From a virus (lineage: Duplodnaviria; Heunggongvirae; Uroviricota; Caudoviricetes): 64,000 bases of DNA. The stretch lies in IMG/VR virus record IMGVR_UViG_2778260992_000001; one strand, written 5' to 3'. The position numbers and the translations under genes are program-made. Under the pieces are notes generated by a model. That model saw nothing but the letters and a program-made list of their open reading frames with translations, was not told the DNA's origin and searched no databases. Position 1 is the stretch's first letter. Every line of letters starts with the position of its first letter. Positions 16,034 to 63,964 of this stretch are shown in pieces.

Positions 16034-16048
16034 GAAAACAATTTGTTT
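16034..16048. promoter_or_regulatory. class-1 palindromic element GAAAACAATTTGTTT
   Basis: AAAACAA-N-TTGTTT inverted repeat about 20 bp upstream of start codon. Confidence 0.5.
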
Positions 16049-17631: not shown

Positions 17632-18164
17632 ACCGCTGACAGCATACACAATCAATTACCGCTGATAGCATATCGAGAGTTTATCTCACCGCTCACAGCA
17701 TACTTTACTCGATTTTTTACCGCTGACAGCATACTTAAGACATTGCATGAATAATGTGTACCGGTATGGGTATAACCAGAACAAAATTACCGCTGGCAGC
17801 ATACGAAGGTCTGACATATACCATTAATTACCGCTGATAGCATATCCAAACAAAAATTCCTCAATAAAACACCGCTGACAGCATACGTTCTATCAGGGAG
17901 CAGCAGGCAATAAATGCCTTTCACTACAAGCAATCAGCGCAACGGCAATAGAATGTTAGTGAGCGCAAACCTATATGGAATGCACTCTTCGAGGTTAGTA
18001 ACCACTGGGGAGGTATGCCAGAGCATTGAGTGGTGATAGATGATTTACCGCTCACAGCATACGTTTATCTCACTATACCGCTGGTAGCATATCTTTAACC
18101 GTTCACAGCATACTTTTCAGAAAAATAGCCGCTGATAGCATACATTTCACCGCTGACAGCATAT
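17632..18164. repeat. incA-like iteron array (12 copies of ACCGCTGACAGCATAC and variants)
   Basis: 16-bp direct repeats at irregular 25-45 bp spacing downstream of repA, as in P1 incA. Confidence 0.8.
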
Positions 18165-19258
18165 CAAAGCAGTTTGAGACTATTGGAAAGGATCTCAATC
18201 ATCTTGATATTTTCAGGCGTCAAATTCTGCGAAAGTTCGGTTATCTTGTTGATAATGTTCTGTTTGGCATCAATTTCCCCAGCTTTCTCATCTGGTTTTT
18301 TGGGTTCGATGTCTTCAGGTTTTGGCGGTGCGACTTTGAGTTTTGGATTGCGGCTGTGAATCTGGATATAGATCGACCGCCCACGCTTAATCTCGCTGTA
18401 TTCGAGATAGCCCAAATCTTGGAGAGCTTTTAATCCGTTACGTATAGTCTGATTCTGCGAGCTGACATTCCTGCTACTCAAATTGAGTCGCGCACGCAAT
18501 CGAGCAAGCGATACCGGCGCAGGCTTGGTTGGAAGACTTTCGATGAAGGTGTACAGAGCCTGTGCTGTTTCTTTGCGTGGTAGCTTATTGATAACCTTTA
18601 ACTGCAAAAGAACCTTATGGTCAAAGCGATATAGTTCGGCCAGCTTCGGTTCTGCATAGAACACCACCGTATCTTTCTGCTCGTTGTAGTCCACGCTATT
18701 GATGAGGTGCACCATCAGAAGCGAGATCTTGTTAGAGCCGTCGACGTTCTTTTCTTCATACGTTCTCTGGAAAGACAGAGTTGTACGCATGATCTTCAAA
18801 AGACTGTTTGTAAGCCGGTCGCGGAGTGTTTTGCGGATCTGTGACGATGGATAGCCACAAAACTTCGCAAATTTCGTGATGCTTAACTCGACACGACCAT
18901 TAGGTTCGCCGTATTCTGCCAGCGAACGCACAACGCCCACCCACGTTTTGAAATCATGATCCATGTCCAGGCGAGGACCGGTTATCTTGATATCGGAATA
19001 GCCTTCAGAACGGGCTACTTCGAGCTGGACAAGCTCCTTTGAAGCATCGATCTCATTTGGCTTGTTACGTTTACTGTATTTTGTTCCCTTAAGCGTGGGG
19101 ACGAACAACCCCAGTCGCATCAACGCAATTGGTTGGACTGTATTGTTGCTATTAGGGACAAGTTCCCCTGTGTACAATTCAAGGGAACCTTCTTCAAAGT
19201 TGTCGATGTTATCTTCTACTTCTTTGTTATTTTTACCTTTTTTATTTTTTGTGGACAT
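18164..19258 (-). CDS. repA: plasmid replication initiator RepA (P1 RepA-like)
   Basis: Blocks NSNNTVQPIALMRLGLFVP, EGYSDIKITGPRLDMDHDFKTW, AQALYTFIESLP and IQIHSRNPKLK closely match P1 RepA as remembered; start set at MSTKNK because the upstream track extension runs over the iterons. Confidence 0.85.
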   Translation of the reverse strand: MSTKNKKGKNNKEVEDNIDNFEEGSLELYTGELVPNSNNTVQPIALMRLGLFVPTLKGTKYSKRNKPNEIDASKELVQLEVARSEGYSDIKITGPRLDMDHDFKTWVGVVRSLAEYGEPNGRVELSITKFAKFCGYPSSQIRKTLRDRLTNSLLKIMRTTLSFQRTYEEKNVDGSNKISLLMVHLINSVDYNEQKDTVVFYAEPKLAELYRFDHKVLLQLKVINKLPRKETAQALYTFIESLPTKPAPVSLARLRARLNLSSRNVSSQNQTIRNGLKALQDLGYLEYSEIKRGRSIYIQIHSRNPKLKVAPPKPEDIEPKKPDEKAGEIDAKQNIINKITELSQNLTPENIKMIEILSNSLKLL

Positions 19259-19278: not shown

Positions 19279-19380
19279 ACCGCTGACAGCATACTTGATT
19301 TGCCGCTGACAGAATACCAAAAACAGTTGGCAGCATACGGTGAACCGCTGACAGACTATCAATTACCGCTGACAGCATAC
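19279..19380. repeat. origin iterons (about 5 copies of ACCGCTGACAGCATAC family) upstream of repA
   Basis: Same repeat as the downstream array, between repA start and the GATC cluster. Confidence 0.8.
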
Positions 19381-19420
19381 ATGAACATGGCTTCAGACCA
19401 GTCGTGGCGCGGCTTACAGC

Positions 19421-52645: not shown

Positions 52646-52759
52646 CGGTTGCAACTTATTGATAATGGCGGTCACAATTTGATTCTTTTCTATAAGAATC
52701 CGTTGATCGCCACTACTCCCCTTCCATACCTGCAATCATACCCTTAAATATCAATAGGT

Positions 52760-53560
52760 TATGGTTGTTTATACAAATAAGAAAACAACTAAATAACAGA
52801 TCAACGAAACGTCAACGCTTTCACCCGATTTGGTCTAAAAAATTGACGTTTTCACACATCACTTCTTATACCCGTAACTCTACGCAGCAGACAGCGCCAC
52901 AGCGTCCAATTTTCACCACAGACGACCCAACACACTACCAACAAAAACACACGCTCAAAATCGCTCCCGTTGCGTTACGCAACCATATAAACAACTTATT
53001 TTCAGGCATAACAAAACAACTAAATAACACACATGCCATTCCCAAAAACAACCAACCTCTTTATGGCAGGCTACCGAAAAGACCCACCTCTTCTCCCCAG
53101 GCTACCGGACAACCAACCTAACTTTCACAGGCAATCCGAAAACATTCATACGCGCGATACCCACGACACGCCATTACCCAAACAGCGAAGAAATACCAGA
53201 CTCACTGAAACCCCAACGAAGCCTGTTACCGCAAGGATTCTCTCAATCCCAAAAGACACGAAACAGAACAATCACGGGAAACGCCATTACCCAATACACG
53301 AATAACTACAAAAGCCTTTCAGGCACTCCAGACAAACAACTCAAACACAATAACGAAAGCAATCGCCCACCTGCCATTACTCCATACACGGAGAAGAACA
53401 ATCACCAAAACGACGAGAACACCCCATAGAAGAACCACCGCAAAACGAACGAAACCACATACACCGACAGAGAAAACAACACACCCAATTCACCAACAGA
53501 AATAGTCGCCGTATAGGACATTCTGGAAGGAGTGAGCATTAACGCCTATAGAGAGGTTGA
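52760..53560 (+). repeat. strongly strand-asymmetric A+C-rich, G/T-poor tract with degenerate internal repeats (candidate ncRNA or Rho-loading region)
   Basis: By eye about three-quarters or more A+C on the + strand over about 0.75 kb; repeated GCCATTACCCAA and AAAACAACTAAATAACA units; putative -35 TTGACG (52843-52848) and -10-like at 52866-52871; track ORFs here are low-complexity. Confidence 0.5.
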
Positions 53561-53618
53561 GACAGATAAAACACAACATGTATAGCGAAGAAGCCAGGTA
53601 TGTATAAGTGGGGATGGA

Positions 53619-53645
53619 AGGAGGGGTGTCGCCTCCTTTTTCGTA
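53619..53645 (+). terminator. rho-independent terminator closing the A+C-rich tract
   Basis: AGGAGG-ggtgtcg-CCTCCT followed by TTTTCGTATTT. Confidence 0.6.
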
Positions 53646-53699
53646 TTTATTCAACTCCTGATTTTATCCCCCGTAACACCCCTACGGTCAGCCTTCGGT

Positions 53700-53840
53700 C
53701 CATACAGGGGAAAGGCTGCATCCCGCTACAGAAACGGCTGGGTTGCCTTTGGGAACGGCTGGAGGTTTTCAGGGAAACGGTCGAGTTGCCTGTGTGGATT
53801 TCGGGAAAAGGCTCGATGCCGGTTCAGGAACGGTGGCGTA
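53700..53840. repeat. cluster of GRAAACGGC repeats (copy 1)
   Basis: GGGAAAGGCTG, AGAAACGGCTGG, GGGAACGGCTGG, GGGAAACGGTCG, GGGAAAAGGCTCG, GGAACGGTGG within about 140 bp. Confidence 0.55.
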
Positions 53841-54167
53841 CCGGTATAGCGAGAGGGAGAGTTGCGGCTACCCACCTGTAATGTGCGGGAAGAAGAGAGG
53901 CGCTCACGTAGGCGGACTTGCTTACCGCTGGATTCCCTCTGAATGCCCAGCTACAGCGTAATTGTGCCAGACAGCCAACGGGTCACAATCGATTTCAGTA
54001 GGTTTTTGGGGAGAGGATTACTCTGCCACCAGCCACTTTCGGCCACTAAATCAGAATAATGTAAAAAGTGTACTCGGTACTGAACCTGAAAACTCACTGC
54101 CAAAACCACATTCACCGGAACAAAATCCTTTTTCGCCTGTGCGTTATTGCGATAATAACACCATCAA

Positions 54168-54182
54168 GAAAACATGTTGTTT
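54168..54182. promoter_or_regulatory. class-1 element GAAAACATGTTGTTT with extended -10-like TGCGATAAT upstream
   Basis: CGATAAT-ACACCA-CAAGAAAACA block conserved with the 56.3 and 56.8 kb copies. Confidence 0.5.
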
Positions 54183-54194
54183 AAGGATTGCTTT

Positions 54195-54524
54195 ATGTTT
54201 ACAAATATCGACATCAACCAAATCAAGAAATTAACTCAAAAAGAGTTTGATCAGTTTTATGAGTTAGAAGGTTGGTCTTCCACTCTGATCAATTCAAGAT
54301 GGGTGCTGGAACTGATGACTCGTGATGACGCACCTGCTTTGATGATCAGCGACCTGGGTGAAGATGCTGACTTTATGGATATGAGCGAATTTTGTGTGGA
54401 CACATACAACCGCAGCCAGAAGTACTACTTCACATGCGATAGCGAAAATGACGTGATTTCTAAGGTCTATCTTCACCTCGTCCAGCATTGGGACGTTCAG
54501 GAGTTTCTTGAAGTATTCGAGTAA
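54195..54524 (+). CDS. hypothetical small acidic protein
   Basis: 109 aa, Asp/Glu-rich; start at ATG after AAGGA RBS. Confidence 0.5.
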   Translation: MFTNIDINQIKKLTQKEFDQFYELEGWSSTLINSRWVLELMTRDDAPALMISDLGEDADFMDMSEFCVDTYNRSQKYYFTCDSENDVISKVYLHLVQHWDVQEFLEVFE

Positions 54525-54650
54525 CCCCAACCAAAGCCAGCATTGCTGGCTTAATTTCTCTATAGCCGCAGGGAAGAACCTGCATATAGCTCATGCACCT
54601 GATCAATATGCTTTGTAGCCGTTTTCTTACTGGTATTATTTACGCCATTG

Positions 54651-54668
54651 AGAAAACAAGTTGTTTAC
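54651..54668. promoter_or_regulatory. class-1 palindromic element GAAAACAAGTTGTTTAC
   Basis: Upstream of the 54678 start. Confidence 0.5.
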
Positions 54669-54677
54669 GGAGTTGTG

Positions 54678-54989
54678 ATGAAAAAATCATTGGTTCTTGG
54701 TCTGGACAAAGACCAGAAGAGAAAAGAGAAGCCTGCGCTGGTTGCTCAATTAACTTTGCTGGACATCGTTGCCAATGGAACCTCTATTCGTCTGTTCCGT
54801 GAAACAGCGGTGTCTTTCGATAAAAACACCTTTACTCGTTATGTAATGAATGTTCGTCGCCAGCGTGGAAAAGGCTGGGTGGCATTTCAAAGAATGTGGC
54901 CGGAACATCAGCTCGAACTGGCTTTGATGGAAGTTAACCGCGTGGCCCAGCAAGAGATTCAGAGAGCATCAGTGATGGCAATAGCCTGA
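54678..54989 (+). CDS. hypothetical small basic protein
   Basis: 103 aa; start at ATG after GGAG (track ORF begins at a TTG codon, 54648). Confidence 0.5.
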   Translation: MKKSLVLGLDKDQKRKEKPALVAQLTLLDIVANGTSIRLFRETAVSFDKNTFTRYVMNVRRQRGKGWVAFQRMWPEHQLELALMEVNRVAQQEIQRASVMAIA

Positions 54990-55022
54990 TAATGTGCAAG
55001 TGGTAATTAGTCGACCGTACGA

Positions 55023-55050
55023 CAGCCCCGCCATCCTTACGGGGCTTTTT
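55023..55050 (+). terminator. rho-independent terminator
   Basis: AGCCCCG-ccatccttac-GGGGCT followed by TTTTTT. Confidence 0.65.
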
Positions 55051-55055
55051 TGTAT

Positions 55056-55071
55056 TGTAAGTACATACTTA
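55056..55071. promoter_or_regulatory. class-2 palindrome GTAAGTACATACTTAC
   Basis: Perfect 7-bp arms; between terminator and next gene. Confidence 0.45.
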
Positions 55072-55115
55072 CGATCATAGAATATAAAAATAACCAAAAC
55101 ACTACGGAGAGTGAA

Positions 55116-55511
55116 ATGACCGTTAAACGCGAAAAACTGACAGTTGATGTTTACTATGCCTCTGAAACCGCCGAAGGTAAGAATGTGGCAAAAATCACCG
55201 TTGTTACGTACAACACCGAAACTGGTGCCGAAGTCCAGGCCAGTACGATCGTGCGTAAAGGTGATGCCTCCGGCGGCGAGTACGCGACTCAATACCAGTC
55301 CATTCTCGATGCAACTGACCCGCTGCTGCTGAAAATCGAGAACTACTTCCGCCAGGTTAATGAAGAGGTGTTTGAAACCATGATGAATATGGTTAACACC
55401 GTATTCGCCTCCAGCCTGAATACCAACACTACCTGGATTGGTCAGTACGGCCTGCGCATTACCTCTGGCATTCCTGCCGACACCTTAATCCCTGAAAGCG
55501 TATTCGCTTAA
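55116..55511 (+). CDS. hypothetical protein
   Basis: 131 aa; start at ATG after GGAG RBS. Confidence 0.5.
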   Translation: MTVKREKLTVDVYYASETAEGKNVAKITVVTYNTETGAEVQASTIVRKGDASGGEYATQYQSILDATDPLLLKIENYFRQVNEEVFETMMNMVNTVFASSLNTNTTWIGQYGLRITSGIPADTLIPESVFA

Positions 55512-55520
55512 TCCTCTTTA

Positions 55521-55550
55521 AATGGCGCGTAAACCGCGCCATTTTATTAT
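55521..55550 (+). terminator. rho-independent terminator
   Basis: AATGGCGCG-taaac-CGCGCCATT followed by TTATTAT. Confidence 0.65.
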
Positions 55551-55557
55551 GCCCGAT

Positions 55558-55570
55558 AACAATTTGTTTT
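55558..55570. promoter_or_regulatory. class-1 palindromic element AACAATTTGTTTT
   Basis: Same AACAATTTGTTTTCTGCC block as at 51.3 kb. Confidence 0.5.
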
Positions 55571-55628
55571 CTGCCTTATCTGATTTGTGAAAATGATTTC
55601 ACTGAAGCAACTTAATAAGGAAACCATC

Positions 55629-56003
55629 ATGGGACTTGATATCTATATCGAGACGCAGCCTAAAAACGATCTGAATAACGAGGCATCCAGAAAGCAGGTT
55701 GCTTACTTCCGTAAGTTCAATGCGCTCGTTGGGTGGATGGAGCGCAACGTAGGTGAAGTCGAAAATTGTGAGCTTTTAGAATTAACGATGAATGACATTT
55801 GTTTTCTGAAGGCTCATTTGATGCACATAAACGAAAGTAATTGCGAAGAGTACTTGCCTACCCGGGAAGGTTTTTTCTTCGGCAGTCAGGAGTACGATGA
55901 AGGTTACTGGCATGATGTGGGGCAGTTGAAAGAGCTTGTGGAAGATCTGATTAAGAACCACGACTTTCACAATAACAGACTGACCTTCTGCGCCTGGTGG
56001 TAA
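55629..56003 (+). CDS. hypothetical small acidic protein
   Basis: 124 aa; start at ATG after AAGGA RBS (track ORF begins at GTG 55587). Confidence 0.5.
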   Translation: MGLDIYIETQPKNDLNNEASRKQVAYFRKFNALVGWMERNVGEVENCELLELTMNDICFLKAHLMHINESNCEEYLPTREGFFFGSQEYDEGYWHDVGQLKELVEDLIKNHDFHNNRLTFCAWW

Positions 56004-56154
56004 ATATGGGCGATTTCAAGAAACGCCTGAAGGAAAGAGCCGAGATGGTCAGAAAGCAAAACGCCTCTTCTGTCATCAGATACGCAAGGCAGTTTAGTCG
56101 CAACAACAAATCAGTTGAGGAAAAGATCCTTAGCGTAATCGGGCGATAATTATT

Positions 56155-56178
56155 AAGGCCACCAGCATTGGTGGTCTT
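56155..56178 (+). terminator. hairpin AAGGCCACCAGCATTGGTGGTCTT (repeat copy 1)
   Basis: Near-identical copy at 56625-56648; both followed by AAATGACT. Confidence 0.5.
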
Positions 56179-56304
56179 AAATGACTTTTAATAACCGAAG
56201 GTTAGTTTGAAACCTGGCTATCAACTTCCATAACCTTTCTTGTGTATTCAGCCTGTATTAACTTCTTTTATGCCTTATCTACACTGCGATAATTACACCA
56301 ACAA

Positions 56305-56319
56305 GAAAACAACATGTTT
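56305..56319. promoter_or_regulatory. class-1 element GAAAACAACATGTTT with upstream TGCGATAAT
   Basis: Conserved promoter block. Confidence 0.5.
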
Positions 56320-56338
56320 ACGCAGTTAGGATATGCTC

Positions 56339-56620
56339 ATGACTGATTTCACCATTACCCCTAAAGCACAAAATGTATTTCTTGAATCATGGCTGGACTT
56401 GCCGGAAACAGAACAGCAAGAAATGGATCATGTGGATTATGACGAGCAGGTAAGCACGCGATTCTTCCACTTTGAGGGATGCGTTTACGACATTGTCGAC
56501 TTCATGCGAGATGACCGCTTCCCTGAATGGCACGCAAGCTATCCACTAAACGCCTTTGCCATGCTGATGATCCGTGTGGATGATTCAGGGGATACCATCG
56601 ACATCGGTCTGCTCCACTAA
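56339..56620 (+). CDS. hypothetical small acidic protein
   Basis: 93 aa, strongly acidic (DLPETEQQEMDHVDYDEQ); start at second ATG with better RBS spacing. Confidence 0.5.
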   Translation: MTDFTITPKAQNVFLESWLDLPETEQQEMDHVDYDEQVSTRFFHFEGCVYDIVDFMRDDRFPEWHASYPLNAFAMLMIRVDDSGDTIDIGLLH

Positions 56621-56624
56621 AGGC

Positions 56625-56648
56625 TAAGGCCACCAGCATTGGTGGCCT
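56625..56648 (+). terminator. hairpin AAGGCCACCAGCATTGGTGGCCTT (repeat copy 2)
   Basis: Perfect stem; duplicate of the 56155 hairpin. Confidence 0.5.
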
Positions 56649-56789
56649 TAAATGACTATCTTGTTTCCCGCAGGCTAAAAACACCAACCTCTTACCTCCA
56701 GGCAACCGACAAACCCACCTGTTCCCGTCCGGCTACCGTAACTTTCCACTTTGACGCCTTATTCGTACAACGATAATTAACACCAACAA

Positions 56790-56803
56790 GAAAACAATTT
56801 GTT
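56790..56803. promoter_or_regulatory. class-1 element GAAAACAATTTGTT with upstream CGATAAT
   Basis: Conserved promoter block. Confidence 0.5.
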
Positions 56804-56824
56804 ATTTACGATAAGGAATTAATC

Positions 56825-57307
56825 ATGAATTTTATCGCTACTGTAAACGCACCCGCACATGGCAATATCGCTGTAACGTTCTCTGACATTGAAAAACGAG
56901 TACTTGGTGCATGGCGCGACAATGAGACGGTAGAACTGTCAGCACAAGAAAAATGCATTATTGCACGCGACATCATTGGCAATCGTCGTTACTCGCGGGT
57001 ATTTGAAAAAGCGTATGTGGTAAATTCTGGATTCGGAACGTTCGTCTTTCCGGTGCGCTCCGGGCGATTCTGCCAGTCCAAGCTGATTGAGTTCGCTACG
57101 CAGATTTCTGTCTGGATTAAAACTCAATCGTCGTTCAAATTTTCCGACGATGAAGCAGTATCGCAGGGGATGCGGATCGCCAACAATGCAATTAAATGCA
57201 AAAACATTACGTATACCGCTGGCGTTGATACATGGAAACTGTTTTGCGCTAACTTTATGCTGAATGTATACGCAAGCAACCGCATCCACATCCTTGATGG
57301 CGTGTAA
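56825..57307 (+). CDS. hypothetical protein
   Basis: 160-aa ORF; terminator hairpin GGGCC-agaaac-GGCCC downstream. Confidence 0.5.
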   Translation: MNFIATVNAPAHGNIAVTFSDIEKRVLGAWRDNETVELSAQEKCIIARDIIGNRRYSRVFEKAYVVNSGFGTFVFPVRSGRFCQSKLIEFATQISVWIKTQSSFKFSDDEAVSQGMRIANNAIKCKNITYTAGVDTWKLFCANFMLNVYASNRIHILDGV

Positions 57308-57314
57308 CTGAGAA

Positions 57315-57500
57315 GAGGGCCAGAAACGGCCCTTTCTCTATAGCCACCAGCTGCCGCAGGGAAATTTTCAGAAACGGCGAGGAACGTATTCATGAGCCGA
57401 CGGGAAACGGCCAGGATTTTTTCGGGAAACGGCTGCATTCGCCTTTATGTAGAAAAAACATCGGGAAGCTGGTGGAATCCAACCAGCGGTTGTCGGACAG
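57315..57500. repeat. cluster of GRAAACGGC repeats (copy 2)
   Basis: CAGAAACGGCCC, CAGAAACGGCGAGG, GGGAAACGGCCAGG, GGGAAACGGCTGC, GGGAAGCTGG; TTCTCTATAGCC also shared with the 54.55 kb region. Confidence 0.55.
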
Positions 57501-57894
57501 GTGAGCGGGGAAAATTATGATGACTTTCGTCACCTGAGACATCCAGATTTCTTTCGTAGCATAATCACATACGTGATTAAGTGGTGTGATTATGTGAAAA
57601 ATCACGCGCACATAATACGCGAGCGGATACAGAACAAAACAAAATGCCGATCCGCACCGACAAATAAACGCGGATCACATAGCAAGACTAAAAGCCAATG
57701 ATTAACCATACTCTATAGCGCAATATAACGCGTTTTAAGCGCGTTAATGTGTTAAGTAATGGGTATGTACTGGCAAGGATATAAAAGCGCGTCTATGGCG
57801 TTATTTTGGTGCTTATTTTTATGTTGTTGGAGTGAGTTAAAGACAATAAAAAACGCGCCATTGATGGCGCGTTATTGTGGAAGTATTGGAAACG

Positions 57895-57930
57895 AAAAAA
57901 GCGCCCATAGTGGGCGCTCGATTTTATTTA
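57895..57930 (-). terminator. terminator hairpin GCGCCCATAGTGGGCGC flanked by A- and T-tracts
   Basis: Perfect 7-bp stem; A6 upstream and T-rich downstream on + strand, so it can act for the minus-strand cassette; duplicate at 58397-58413; related ACGCGCCATTGATGGCGCGT hairpin at 57851-57872. Confidence 0.55.
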
Positions 57931-58154
57931 TGTAAACTGATTTCAAATCCCATTTCTACAAACGCTTTCAGCATTAAAAATATATCAGCGTCGTTCACGT
58001 CTGCTTTTTTTCGCTCCTGGTCGCTCAATAAGTCAATTTTGCGCGTCGTTTCATCTATAAGCTCGACTGCGCGCCCAGCGTAACCAGCGATCCCAGCGAT
58101 GCGATTAACATAATATTCGTTATGGACGTTAACGCCAGCGATAAGAACAAACAT
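57924..58154 (-). CDS. hypothetical small protein (cassette gene 3)
   Basis: 76-aa ORF, last gene of a minus-strand three-gene cassette. Confidence 0.4.
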   Translation of the reverse strand: MFVLIAGVNVHNEYYVNRIAGIAGYAGRAVELIDETTRKIDLLSDQERKKADVNDADIFLMLKAFVEMGFEISLHK

Positions 58155-58426: not shown

Positions 58427-59077
58427 TTACGCTTTGAAAGCATCAGCTAAATAATTGTAGAAATCATTTTTAATGAAGCGATATTGCTGAGTACCAGCTT
58501 TCGCGCTCCCAGCTCCTTTGACTTTTTCAACAAGTCCAAGACGTTCGCAAAGATTGATCAACTGGTTGGCTTGAGTATAACCAGCGTCCAATTTAATTTC
58601 ACACGCTTTTTTAGCTTCATTCATTAAATCGAAAACAGCGCCATTAGTGAACGTGTCGATCTCGTCGTTAATCATATCGATTAAAGCGAATACACGAGAT
58701 CCAGACATATCAGCGATGGAATAAACGCATTTACCAGATTTAATTGATTTAACCAGATAAACCAGTTTTTCCAGAGAATAACTATTAGTCATTGCATCAC
58801 GGAAAAATACTTCTGGCGCTTGTTTGCTTGCTTTAATCGCATAGTAGAAAACAGAGCATAATTTTTCGTCTTCTACTGCGTTTACGACGTTGTTGATGAA
58901 GTAAGCAAGTTTAGTGGTCGCAGCTTGCATATTTGCTTTGTCTGCTTTAGTGTGCGTACCATTTTTATAATGTTCGTTATATGTTTGAGTTGCCAGATCT
59001 GCTTTTTCGCGCAGTTCATCGGATACAATGGAAGCAGCTTCAATGATGGATTTTTTAGAAATGATAATGTTAGCCAT
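58427..59077 (-). CDS. hypothetical protein (cassette gene 1), possible C-terminal winged-helix
   Basis: 216-aa ORF; sequence style (GCGCG-rich, AT-rich flanks) differs from neighbours. Confidence 0.5.
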   Translation of the reverse strand: MANIIISKKSIIEAASIVSDELREKADLATQTYNEHYKNGTHTKADKANMQAATTKLAYFINNVVNAVEDEKLCSVFYYAIKASKQAPEVFFRDAMTNSYSLEKLVYLVKSIKSGKCVYSIADMSGSRVFALIDMINDEIDTFTNGAVFDLMNEAKKACEIKLDAGYTQANQLINLCERLGLVEKVKGAGSAKAGTQQYRFIKNDFYNYLADAFKA

Positions 59078-59672: not shown

Positions 59673-60197
59673 TCAAAAAGGCAAAATTCGTTCAACCCAA
59701 TCGAACAAAACAACTATTTTTCTACCGTTCTCGACACGTAGTGTAACCTGACAAGCATCTGCGCCTGCTGACACCCCCTCAATTTCACGGCCATCCGCCA
59801 TGTACACCCTTATAGATTTGTTTGCTTTGTAGGCTTGGTTGCAAATTGCAAAAAAATCGCGGCGTGATGGCCGATTATCGACATAATCAGGGTGAACTGT
59901 TAGTCGACCTTTGAAATCGTGAGCGATACTGTCAACCACACCTGATTCAATTGTACTAATGCGTTCAAGTGGGAGCCTTATACGATTTTCTTTGTCAAAA
60001 GGGGCTGGGCAAAGGTCAACTTTGTTACGAGATGGCATGAGGCCATAAACGTACATGCAAAACGCCTGGCCATCTTCGAGAGTGACCCTTACAGGAATTT
60101 GTTCTCTGCGCCAGAACATCAGTAGTTTTTCAACGTTAGTGTAATCTCGCGGCCAGAGTTCAGCTTGGATACCGTAGGTAATATCTTTGGTTGTCAT
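59673..60197 (-). CDS. hypothetical protein (weak tandem Rof/YaeO-like resemblance)
   Basis: Start set at MTTKDITYG to avoid overlap with upstream lipoprotein gene; resemblance is weak. Confidence 0.4.
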   Translation of the reverse strand: MTTKDITYGIQAELWPRDYTNVEKLLMFWRREQIPVRVTLEDGQAFCMYVYGLMPSRNKVDLCPAPFDKENRIRLPLERISTIESGVVDSIAHDFKGRLTVHPDYVDNRPSRRDFFAICNQAYKANKSIRVYMADGREIEGVSAGADACQVTLRVENGRKIVVLFDWVERILPF

Positions 60198-60201
60198 GTC
60201 A

Positions 60202-60666
60202 TCACAGAGTTGTTGGCAGAATGTCGATGTCACCAGAATTGCTGGTGAACACCCTGAACGCTTTTGTGTCTCCATTCTTCAGAGTCGTTTCTCGCTCTTG
60301 ACGAGCGGGGTTTAGAGCACATAAACCTGCACCTTCAAGAGATGCACCCACAATTAATTCTCCGGCATTTAAATGAAAAGTCGCTTTTTCGCCTGTAGCC
60401 AGTTTTGCGACAGTTTCGCCATTGATGAAAATGGAAGCATCACATCCAGCTCCTACAAAACCTGTGTCTCTCATTACCACCAACGTAGCTGGCGCTGCGC
60501 TTTGATACTTGAACACTTTGGCCTGCGGTGCTGGTTTGGCGTCATGGATTGATATTGGACGTGATTGGCACGCGGTAAGCATCAACACTGGTAACGTTAG
60601 TAGAGGGAGAAGCGAGTATTTCATGTTAGTTTTAGAACAGAAAGTGAACAGTATGGGAGACTTCAT
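60202..60666 (-). CDS. lipoprotein (DUF2846-like by pattern)
   Basis: Lipobox LTAC after hydrophobic signal; start may instead be the internal MKYSLL. Confidence 0.5.
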   Translation of the reverse strand: MKSPILFTFCSKTNMKYSLLPLLTLPVLMLTACQSRPISIHDAKPAPQAKVFKYQSAAPATLVVMRDTGFVGAGCDASIFINGETVAKLATGEKATFHLNAGELIVGASLEGAGLCALNPARQERETTLKNGDTKAFRVFTSNSGDIDILPTTL

Positions 60667-62601: not shown

Positions 62602-63296
62602 ATTGTAGCAATAAAATGGATGTAAAAATCACGATTTTGCAGGTTGATGTTGCCAACCTTCGCCCGAATACCTGGAACACCAATTCGGTTGGTGCGCAGA
62701 ATTTTGAAAAACTGAAAGGTTCTATCGAAAAATTGGGCTTTTTTAAGCCAATTTTGGCTCGTGAACTTGAAGATGGATTTTTTGAAATCCTCGGCGGTGA
62801 ACATCGCTGGCGTGCTGCTATTGAGCAAGGAATTTCAACGGTTCCGGTGCTTTCTGTGGGCAAAATTAGCGATGTCGTAGCTAAACAGATGTCACTGGTG
62901 GACAACGAGCGATACGGTGAAGACGACCAAATCGCATTGCAACGCTTCATTGAAGAAATTCAGTCAGAACTTGACTATCAACTGTTTGAAATCGCTCCGT
63001 ATGACGACGAAATCTCGATGGTTTTAGCAAAAGAGGCGGCAATCGACCTTGAAGCACTGGAGGCGTTGTCTCGTGGTAGTGATGAGCCTGTCGATACCGA
63101 CAAACGAGAGAAAACCGAACGTGTGGGTGCGGAACATCAGACCATGCGCTTCAAAGTAACTTTCGATGCGTCAGATCGTGTTGCAGAAACCATAAAAAAC
63201 ATCATCAAAGAGCAGGCTATTAACACCGGTAATGAAATGGAGAACGCTGGTGAGGCTCTGGTGTGGCTGGTCGACTACTACAAGGAGCGTATGTAA
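62598..63296 (+). CDS. ParB-like nuclease-domain protein 1
   Basis: ParB/Srx-fold N-terminal motifs including GGEHRWRAA. Confidence 0.6.
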   Translation: MDCSNKMDVKITILQVDVANLRPNTWNTNSVGAQNFEKLKGSIEKLGFFKPILARELEDGFFEILGGEHRWRAAIEQGISTVPVLSVGKISDVVAKQMSLVDNERYGEDDQIALQRFIEEIQSELDYQLFEIAPYDDEISMVLAKEAAIDLEALEALSRGSDEPVDTDKREKTERVGAEHQTMRFKVTFDASDRVAETIKNIIKEQAINTGNEMENAGEALVWLVDYYKERM

Positions 63297-63964
63297 TGAC
63301 CAAAAAGTTTGAAATCGTATATCGCGACCCGGCAGATCTTATTCCCTATGAGATGAATGCCAAAAAGCATGATGAACAGCAGATCAGAGATCTGGCCGCA
63401 GCCATTAAAAAGCGCGGATTTGACCAGCCAATTACGGTCGATAAGAACGACGTAATTATTACTGGCCACGGCCGCCGTGAGGCTGCAATTTTTGCTGGAC
63501 TTGAGCGCGTACCGGTTATTGTTCGCGATGATCTCAGTGATGACGAGGTTCGTGCGAAGCGCCTTGAAGATAACCGACTTGCCAGCATTGATTACGATGC
63601 AATTAAGCTACAGAAAGAGCTTGAGTCGCTTGTTCTGGACGATATCGAGGTTTTCGGCTTTGAAGAGCGTGAGTTGAATGTTCTCGTTGGCAGTATGACA
63701 GAAGAAATGGACACCGACTCGCTAGTTATCGATCTTGGCGAAGAAACTAAACGACAGAAGGATGAACACACCGAGATCAGTCGTGAAGTTGCAGCGGAAG
63801 AAGTACGTGTTGTCGACGTATTGGGCTTTAAAACGCTCCCTGCTGGCTCTGCCATTGTTGTTGGTGATTTGCTTGCCCATATGGAAGAAATGACGGGAGA
63901 AAGCGGGGTAGACGCATTTGTGGCATATGCGGAGAAGATCTCTTCCGGGGAGATGGCTGCATGA
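63296..63964 (+). CDS. ParB-like nuclease-domain protein 2
   Basis: GHGRREAA ParB/Srx motif; ATG overlaps upstream stop with AAGGAG RBS. Confidence 0.6.
   Translation: MTKKFEIVYRDPADLIPYEMNAKKHDEQQIRDLAAAIKKRGFDQPITVDKNDVIITGHGRREAAIFAGLERVPVIVRDDLSDDEVRAKRLEDNRLASIDYDAIKLQKELESLVLDDIEVFGFEERELNVLVGSMTEEMDTDSLVIDLGEETKRQKDEHTEISREVAAEEVRVVDVLGFKTLPAGSAIVVGDLLAHMEEMTGESGVDAFVAYAEKISSGEMAA

Follow-up and report, generated by a model that had tools for sequence, protein, structure and literature searches.

In the replicons of P4 (ori and crr) and P1 (oriR and incA), separated sites are paired by protein-mediated looping. Here we consider two arrays of short direct repeats, lying 3.6 kb apart, in DNA of 64,000 nucleotides (nt) from a Caudoviricetes virus (IMG/VR record IMGVR_UViG_2778260992_000001; the whole of this stretch is referred to as the window), which is a phage-plasmid of the SSU5/pHCM2 type. 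Phage-plasmids of this type are frequent in clinical Enterobacteriaceae and are carriers of resistance genes, and the mechanism by which they switch from plasmid maintenance to lytic replication is not understood. The two arrays are real, same-stranded, conserved and non-coding; they are unrelated to the iterons of RepA and give no RNA-structure signal. With a probability of roughly 0.4, we read them from their sequence as iteron-like DNA sites of a protein encoded by the phage-plasmid backbone, which may belong to a cis-acting locus of replication type. A conserved cis-acting site of the backbone, together with a candidate cognate protein, would offer a concrete handle on the switch between maintenance and lytic replication; if the arrays are merely regulatory sites, they would be an ordinary feature, though a previously unannotated one. 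In the literature searched, the RepA-proximal iterons are the only ones described for this plasmid group (PMC6735626), and the present arrays go unmentioned.

The units of the two arrays are as follows.

53707 to 53836, + strand: array 1, six units with an RGRAAMGGY core, spaced 22, 21, 22, 31 and 22 nt
53707, 53729 and 53750, + strand: array 1 12-mers GGGGAAAGGCTG, CAGAAACGGCTG and TGGGAACGGCTG
53772, 53803 and 53825, + strand: array 1 12-mers GGGAAACGGTCG, GGGAAAAGGCTC and CAGGAACGGTGG
57321 to 57435, + strand: array 2, four strong units, spaced 48, 33 and 22 nt
57321, 57369, 57402 and 57424, + strand: array 2 12-mers CAGAAACGGCCC, CAGAAACGGCGA, GGGAAACGGCCA and GGGAAACGGCTG
about 57359, + strand: weak unit of array 2 (GGGAAATTTT), conserved, with CGCAGGGAAAT at 57356-57366
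about 57463, + strand: weak or degenerate unit of array 2 (GGGAAGCTGG), with CGGGAAGCTGG at 57462-57472

Counting both weak units, array 2 covers 57321-57470. The motif is of the GGGAAACGG type with the core RGRAAMGGY, is asymmetric and occurs in same-strand copies; its fuller consensus is TTTTC-n-GGGAAACGG-C-TG, in which the TTTTC before the core and the TG after it are often present. A preliminary description of this DNA had reported two homologous clusters of GRAAACGGC repeats with shared flanking strings. The clusters are indeed there and exceed chance by far, as judged from the unit listing, a matrix scan and simulations. At a threshold of at least 13 bits, a position weight matrix made from those same array units found in the window the units themselves, one lone intragenic site at 54866 and nothing else. 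Escherichia phage Cyrano, an SSU5-like phage-plasmid of E. coli LF82, has one site at this threshold in its 1-37 kb, and a scan of the remaining Cyrano stretches with a simpler core pattern found no further cluster. When GGGAAACGGC was matched with at most two mismatches, the densest same-strand cluster held 5 matches in 120 nt, compared with a maximum of 3 in 300 first-order Markov simulations. The family is degenerate (8 matches to GGRAAMGGY against 3.1 expected), and although the repeat family reported earlier is real, the literal string GRAAACGGC is too strict, fitting only two copies, both in array 2. The flanking strings fared similarly: CAGAAACGGC is common to both clusters, but TTCTCTATAGCC is not next to array 1. 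It is found exactly at 54556 and 57334, each time directly 3' of a terminator-like hairpin, and near array 1 only inverted, with two mismatches, at 53544. Arrays 1 and 2 have the motif in common and are otherwise not alignable with each other.

The cores are kept across genera while the spacers vary. In sequence comparison, positions 53000-58000 are 97.5% identical to Cyrano, and 53-58 kb matches hundreds of non-mobilizable plasmids of about 105-115 kb from Escherichia, Klebsiella, Enterobacter, Salmonella and Citrobacter. Both arrays occupy matching positions in PhiR41_1, phage SSU5, pHCM2 and a second Salmonella plasmid, and one plasmid each of Enterobacter and Klebsiella, and they are also kept in E. 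coli relatives and in divergent metagenomic relatives. Across 57 unique sequences of the array 1 region, near-invariant cores appear as islands between variable spacers, an invariance that is partly by construction because the set was picked by a nearby conserved block and at least three motif matches; for array 2, the motif served to select the 49 sequences, so that their invariance is circular. Independent of the motif are 77 loci fetched via the neighboring protein of 160 amino acids (aa), in which the arrays are present wherever the locus extends far enough. The 57402/57424 pair with its TTTTC lead-in occurs in every relative fetched in this motif-independent manner. Array 2 was also found in a contig from Buttiauxella and in a 108-kb contig from Yersinia pestis, which we take to be pMT1; array 1 was not seen within the stretch of the Y. 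pestis contig that was retrieved. These two were the only relevant finds in a genome-collection scan for two cores 22 nt apart, which returned mostly chance matches in unrelated taxa.

Relatives gain or lose whole units, seen as gaps of about 22, 23 and 54 alignment columns in the array 1 region. A protein-coding repeat is ruled out by these unit-sized indels together with others whose lengths are not divisible by 3. Of the four plasmid relatives examined, three have no gene over array 1 in their gene tables, and the fourth has a hypothetical coding sequence (CDS) of 200 nt; the Cyrano record annotates a CDS across array 1. A 22-nt spacing prevails in the window and its close relatives. The divergent relatives L172, L174 and L183 keep the GGGAAACGG core but not the spacing, which is 25-34 nt in L172 and 11 and 27 nt in L174, and L183 has a dense run of units, GGGAAACGGGAAACGGGGAAAGGGCCGGGAAACGGGGAAAGGC. 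Because spacing varies in this way among distant relatives, helical phasing is not a conserved constraint and is unusable as an argument for DNA; as a strict rule, it fails there. At the equivalent position, the AT-rich relative L181 has two palindromes of the GGGAAA..TTTCCC type, GGGAAAgtTTTCCC and GGGAAcgttTTCCC, a form that would be typical of sites for a dimeric DNA binder and that argues for one.

The arrays do not follow the plasmid replicon. The repA gene lies at 18164-19219 (- strand), and the iterons adjacent to it are five copies of CCGCTGACAGCATAC at 19279-19384, spaced 21-23 bp. The RepA of the window shares 88% identity with its counterpart on a Klebsiella variicola plasmid but only 48% with the RepA proteins of Cyrano and pHCM2. 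The Klebsiella plasmid has the same CCGCTGACAGCATAC iterons, Cyrano and pHCM2 are without them, and all four carry the same GGGAAACGG arrays. Because the type of RepA swaps while the arrays stay the same, the arrays belong to the conserved backbone and not to the exchangeable replicon. That the RepA of the window is unlike that of Cyrano, although 53-58 kb is 97.5% Cyrano-like, also indicates a swap of the replicon module.

The preliminary description had offered as one possibility that the repeats are binding-site arrays for a protein acting in packaging, partition or replication. Conserved cores between variable spacers, gain and loss of units and the palindromes of L181 all fit DNA binding; the RepA iterons are excluded, however, and the arrays are adjacent neither to par genes nor to terS. 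We consider it somewhat probable that the arrays act as DNA rather than as RNA. The elements that bear on what such sites might do are given below.

53617 to 53642, + strand: terminator-like hairpin directly upstream of array 1, the sole helix in the region with any covariation support
53649 to 53706, + strand: conserved non-coding block from this hairpin to array 1, containing ATTCAA, ATCCCCCGTAAC and a small CC-UNCG-GG hairpin
52700 to 53550, + strand: A+C-rich tract of 850 nt with little G or T, directly upstream of array 1
57318 to 57340, + strand: hairpin resembling an intrinsic terminator and belonging to the 160-aa gene, GGGCC-AGAAAC-GGCCC and then a T tract, read from the sequence and absent from the listing of the consensus terminator scan
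57476 to 57920, no strand assigned: gene-free stretch adjoining array 2, with many inverted repeats and lower GC, closed by bidirectional terminators
58427 to 59077, - strand: candidate binder, an orphan protein of 216 aa, helical in its N-terminal region and with a winged helix predicted at the C terminus, about 1 kb from array 2

We propose that a sequence-specific DNA-binding protein encoded by the backbone would occupy the units. Array 2 and the adjoining 0.45 kb of gene-free DNA would then form a cis site of replication type, with terminators insulating it on either side, that could serve as a second, phage-mode origin or as the control region for one. Array 1, beside the CA-rich tract, would serve as a distal partner, able to pair with array 2 through protein-mediated looping. 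A replication site apart from the RepA oriR is plausible because phage-plasmids of the SSU5/pHCM2 type carry genes of their own for a helicase, a primase, Pol III alpha, SSB and UvsW/UvsY-type proteins, and because of the two-array layout. The arrays sit among small + strand genes without known function, and the - strand operon to their right ends in a UvsW-like helicase. The gene-free stretch (about 0.45 kb) lies directly 3' of this helicase...winged-helix operon. In the window, L181 and L183 alike, the layout is origin-like, with a terminator, the array, inverted repeats and lower-GC gene-free DNA, and terminators again, all 3' of that operon; within it, the array, a long inverted repeat and an AT-rich tract follow in the same order. 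The stretch at 57476-57920 is a candidate, from its sequence features, for a cis-acting core, origin-like or otherwise. The first unit of array 2 (57321) coincides with the loop and 3' arm of the 57318-57340 hairpin, which is conserved. A function of replication type, as opposed to transcriptional insulation of the intervening island or partition, is the likeliest specific assignment, though one with less than even odds. It is a more speculative step, and on balance an unlikely one, to suppose that an undescribed cis locus is made up of both arrays, the CA-rich tract of 0.85 kb and the gene-free stretch with its many hairpins, in which a second, phage-mode origin with a distal partner site would be served by the orphan winged-helix protein of the UvsW-like helicase operon, independently of RepA.

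The best candidate for the protein that would occupy the units is the orphan 216-aa protein. It has no Pfam or NCBIfam match and no sequence match in the PDB. An AlphaFold2 model built from 15 sequences has a mean predicted local distance difference test score of 76.5 and shows a C-terminal helix-helix-strand-strand module; TubR is among its structural matches, and a Foldseek search of the model against viral structures gave no match at E≤0.001. The family is tiny, with 23 representatives at 50% identity among 1.8 billion proteins, and in all relatives whose loci were examined through the region, the distant L181 and L183 included, the protein keeps synteny with array 2. Conservation among homologues of about 30% identity is highest in the putative recognition helix TQxNQxxxLxERLGL, which fits a conserved core of the GGGAAA type. 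Synteny and predicted fold make this protein a possible, though doubtful, binder of the arrays; alternative binders are two ParB_N-domain proteins and a protein of the FljA family. Ten neighboring proteins searched against Pfam and NCBIfam gave the FljA family as the sole match, a PDB sequence search with three of the neighbors gave none, PHROGs assigned neighboring proteins chiefly to families of unknown function, and the 160-aa protein upstream of array 2 is without an informative fold match.

Several observations weigh against reading the arrays as iteron-like DNA sites of a replication-type locus. No DnaA box was seen by eye near array 2, and the AT-rich stretch beside it is only moderately so (GC 37-42% at 57.6-58.0 kb). 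The 21-22 nt spacing is confined to the window and close relatives, with distant relatives showing 7, 11, 13, 25-27, 33 and 43 nt, and an array of single-stranded (RNA) motifs would fit this variable spacing equally well. The arrays lie on either side of an island of small genes that is variable in part, a position equally suited to a role as insulator or in regulation. Chi polarity gave no support either: two-switch models were not significant (773, 599 and 281 of 2000 permutations reached the observed score). Chi sites around array 2 in the window have the outward-protecting orientation, and the best switch point differs among Cyrano, pHCM2 and the Klebsiella plasmid, so that Chi polarity, not significant and inconsistent between genomes, was rejected as an indicator of an origin. 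The cumulative GC skew of Cyrano was rejected as well, as it follows the direction of transcription and is uninformative. Chi itself (GCTGGTGG) is about 10-fold over-represented in the window, with 14 sites against 1.4 expected (24 in Cyrano, 33 in pHCM2 and 26 in the Klebsiella relative). Examples lie at 54026, 56159, 56630, 57344 (-) and 57468 (+); two sites flank array 2, and two lie inside the arms of terminator-like hairpins (56153-56180 and 56625-56651).

The DNA around the arrays holds further repeats. The A+C-rich tract has an A+C content of 61-83% per 100 nt, a GC skew reaching -0.57 and an AT skew reaching +0.66, and this composition, and in part the sequence, is kept at the equivalent site in every relative, the distant L172 and L174 among them. 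The tract is partly covered by hypothetical open reading frames in Cyrano, and the gene tables of the plasmid relatives have no + strand gene over it. Unstructured RNA, a target of Rho or Hfq, or an R-loop-prone template are possibilities for its role. It contains a second repeat family, GCCATTACYC, at 53170, 53283 and 53373 (+), three copies where 0.15 are expected, and most related loci have one to four same-strand copies at the equivalent place. Around array 1, at 53519-53610 and 53845-53862 (+), there is a loose motif, (C/G)YTATAG plus a purine-rich run, of which CCTATAGAGAGG and GGTATAGCGAGAGGGAG are examples. It recurs in inverted sense at 54556, 57334 and 57709, its sense being opposite after two terminator-like hairpins, and its exact 9-mer is weakly enriched (4 against 1.3 expected). 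Directly 3' of array 1, CCGGTAyAG is conserved, with CTCACTATAGGG at the equivalent spot in L183. Downstream of array 2, short repeats resembling GCTAAAAC/GCTATAAC lie at 57700-57760 and are expanded in L172 (7730-7810) to tandem 16-mers (CTAAATGGCTAAACTG); to judge by their sequence, these may be another binding-site array.

We rank a role as operator or insulator directly after a replication-type function and ahead of partition and then packaging. The arrays would in this case be sites of a transcriptional regulator that bracket and control the island of small genes with promoters of their own at 54.17-57.31 kb, possibly looping like lambda OL-OR. They do flank an island whose gene content varies among relatives (6 genes in the window, 10 in L172 and 7 in L174), a terminator-like hairpin precedes each array, and the predicted winged-helix fold of the candidate protein is typical of repressors. 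However, no promoter overlaps the arrays in a consensus scan, the island genes already bear an operator-like palindrome of their own, AAACAAnTTGTTT, and no + strand gene follows array 2. We regard this explanation as unlikely, although less so than those below.

The island genes themselves resemble repeated cassettes. Their upstream segments of 55-61 nt are 60-74% alike (54127-54183, 54607-54667, 56260-56320 and 56749-56803), and terminator-like hairpins at 56154-56186 and 56625-56657 are near-identical (97%). An operator-like palindrome, AAACAAnnTTGTTT, stands shortly upstream of many genes, including these small ones, at 16036, 37693, 38422, 51325, 51376, 54170, 54654 and 56307 of the window; in Cyrano it is found at 82, 29259 and 32080, upstream of terS, parA and a DnaB-like helicase gene. 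It probably marks a genome-wide regulator or class of promoter.

The preliminary description had suggested, as its other possibility, GGA-rich repeats of a small RNA resembling the CsrA/RsmA sponge RNAs. More broadly, the motif might act in RNA, with + strand transcripts serving as a platform or sponge for CsrA or for the neighboring FljA-like PF03614 protein. All units do lie on the same strand as the flanking + strand genes, many contain GGA, their spacing is unconserved in distant relatives (down to 7 nt), and the long CA-rich tract upstream would be unstructured as RNA. FljA binds fliC mRNA, and the FljA-family protein is encoded close by: the 200-aa product of 59673-60275 (-) matches Pfam PF03614 (FljA, repressor of phase-1 flagellin) with E=2.5e-84, has a weak Hfq-like segment and is kept by most relatives. 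Among the genes called in L181 or L183, however, none is listed with a Flag1_repress family, and L181 has palindromic sites at the position of the array.

The RNA itself offers little to recommend a sponge. An Rfam search of 50-61 kb at a permissive E≤1 gave no relevant match. Minimum free energies are no better than those of shuffled sequence (z of -1.2 for array 1 and +0.43 for array 2). With 15-16 diverse sequences per array, RNAalifold gave weak consensus structures (near -15.6 kcal/mol over some 250-300 nt) in which the covariation terms were +0.9 and -0.94 and no hairpins present GGA in their loops. GGA is in fact missing from several conserved units (AGAAACGG, GAGAAACGG and CAGAAACGG), and the invariant part is AAMGG. 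The only hint of constraint at the RNA level in the region is the small hairpin at 53691-53700 upstream of array 1, CC-UUCG-G(G/U), whose loop is UUCG, UGCG or UCCG in relatives and always of the UNCG type. Each array lies directly 3' of an intrinsic-terminator-like hairpin; consensus scans predicted no promoter from these hairpins up to the units, and the first + strand terminator-like site downstream of array 1 is at 54534. In the gene-level RNA-seq table of the LF82 lysogen, CYRAN_103 (CA-rich tract) is at the floor value and CYRAN_104 (over array 1) has a mean of 14.3, 4-fold lower than the 56.9 of CYRAN_102 (PMC9928086 S1), a gene that stands 6-fold above local background in the authors' list (PMC9928086 Table 1). 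The region of array 1 is thus near background in the lysogen, and the small RNA proposed earlier is not supported. We consider an action in RNA of any kind improbable.

Short-repeat arrays are typical of type Ib, II and III centromeres, and the arrays might accordingly be a centromere bound by the plasmid Par proteins or by two ParB_N-domain proteins. The latter are adjacent proteins of about 225 aa with a ParB_N domain only, encoded at 62616-63964 (+), conserved about 5 kb to the right of array 2 and followed in relatives by an ABC-type ATPase. They are, however, without a recognised helix-turn-helix (HTH) or a partner ParA, and head the operon that runs into the terminase genes. The parA of Cyrano (29.3 kb) lies across the circular genome from array 2, with about 38 kb between them along the shorter arc, and its upstream region has other motifs and not that of the arrays. 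Two arrays 3.6 kb apart, neither beside a par gene, would be unusual for a centromere, which we therefore hold to be quite improbable. Membership among parS or partition sites was rejected, as the arrays are not beside partition genes and the window sites are asymmetric rather than palindromic. We take the core to resemble a parS or NBS half-site (GTGAAAC, GGGAAAT), and LytTR or AlgR sites were considered as presumed resemblances; both were treated as leads only and not used as tests.

Recognition sites for the terminase small subunit, of the pac or cosB-like kind, are very unlikely. Two groups of short repeated sites do resemble P1 pac and lambda cosB, but some 9.5 kb, with a whole operon in it, separates terS from array 2, and a terminase site identified by adjacency was rejected on this ground. 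We take the lambda R sites to contain CGTTTCC, the complement of GGAAACG, which served as a lead only and not as a test. The arrays have a negligible chance of being iterons of RepA, or of serving the plasmid replicon in copy control like incA, despite their iteron-like direct-repeat spacing of about 22 bp, since the repeats adjacent to repA differ in sequence, relatives with identical arrays differ in RepA type and iterons, and repA is 34 kb away; as far as sequence analysis reaches, this explanation is refuted by the different repeat and the lack of covariation with RepA type.

Compared with known systems, the arrays share with the CsrA-sponge RNAs CsrB and RsmZ their repeated short GGA-containing motifs, all on one strand. 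They differ in having no Rfam match, no hairpin-presented GGA and no predicted promoter and terminator pair of their own, in that GGA is not the conserved part of the unit, and in their low expression in the lysogen. Centromere arrays, such as those of TubR-tubC, ParR-parC and the P1 parS box A, likewise consist of short direct repeats bound by small winged-helix or ribbon-helix-helix proteins, and TubR is among the structural matches of the candidate protein. The window arrays are, by contrast, not beside a gene for a partition ATPase or GTPase, and they do not vary with the plasmid replicon module, a comparison that left the par modules aside. The split operators OL and OR of lambda are alike in geometry, with two clusters of three to six sites, 2-4 kb apart and spaced at about two helical turns, whereas the array sites are asymmetric, in direct orientation and do not overlap predicted promoters.

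Iteron-like sites, our preferred reading, can be compared with the two-cluster iteron replicons P4 ori/crr, P1 oriR/incA, F incB/incC and R6K. The arrays differ from these in having no adjacent recognisable initiator gene (of the Rep_3, lambda O or P4 alpha type), in a spacing that is unconserved in distant relatives, in the absence of DnaA boxes as seen by eye, and in that the RepA iterons are elsewhere and unrelated. They are like them in consisting of same-sense copies of an asymmetric motif, in two clusters a few kilobases apart, with a spacing of about 22 bp in the window, and in that one array adjoins a gene-free stretch that is terminator-insulated, rich in inverted repeats and of lower GC. 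A protein-bound repeat array is a well-known kind of element, and it is this instance, its affiliation with the backbone and its candidate orphan protein that appear to be undescribed.

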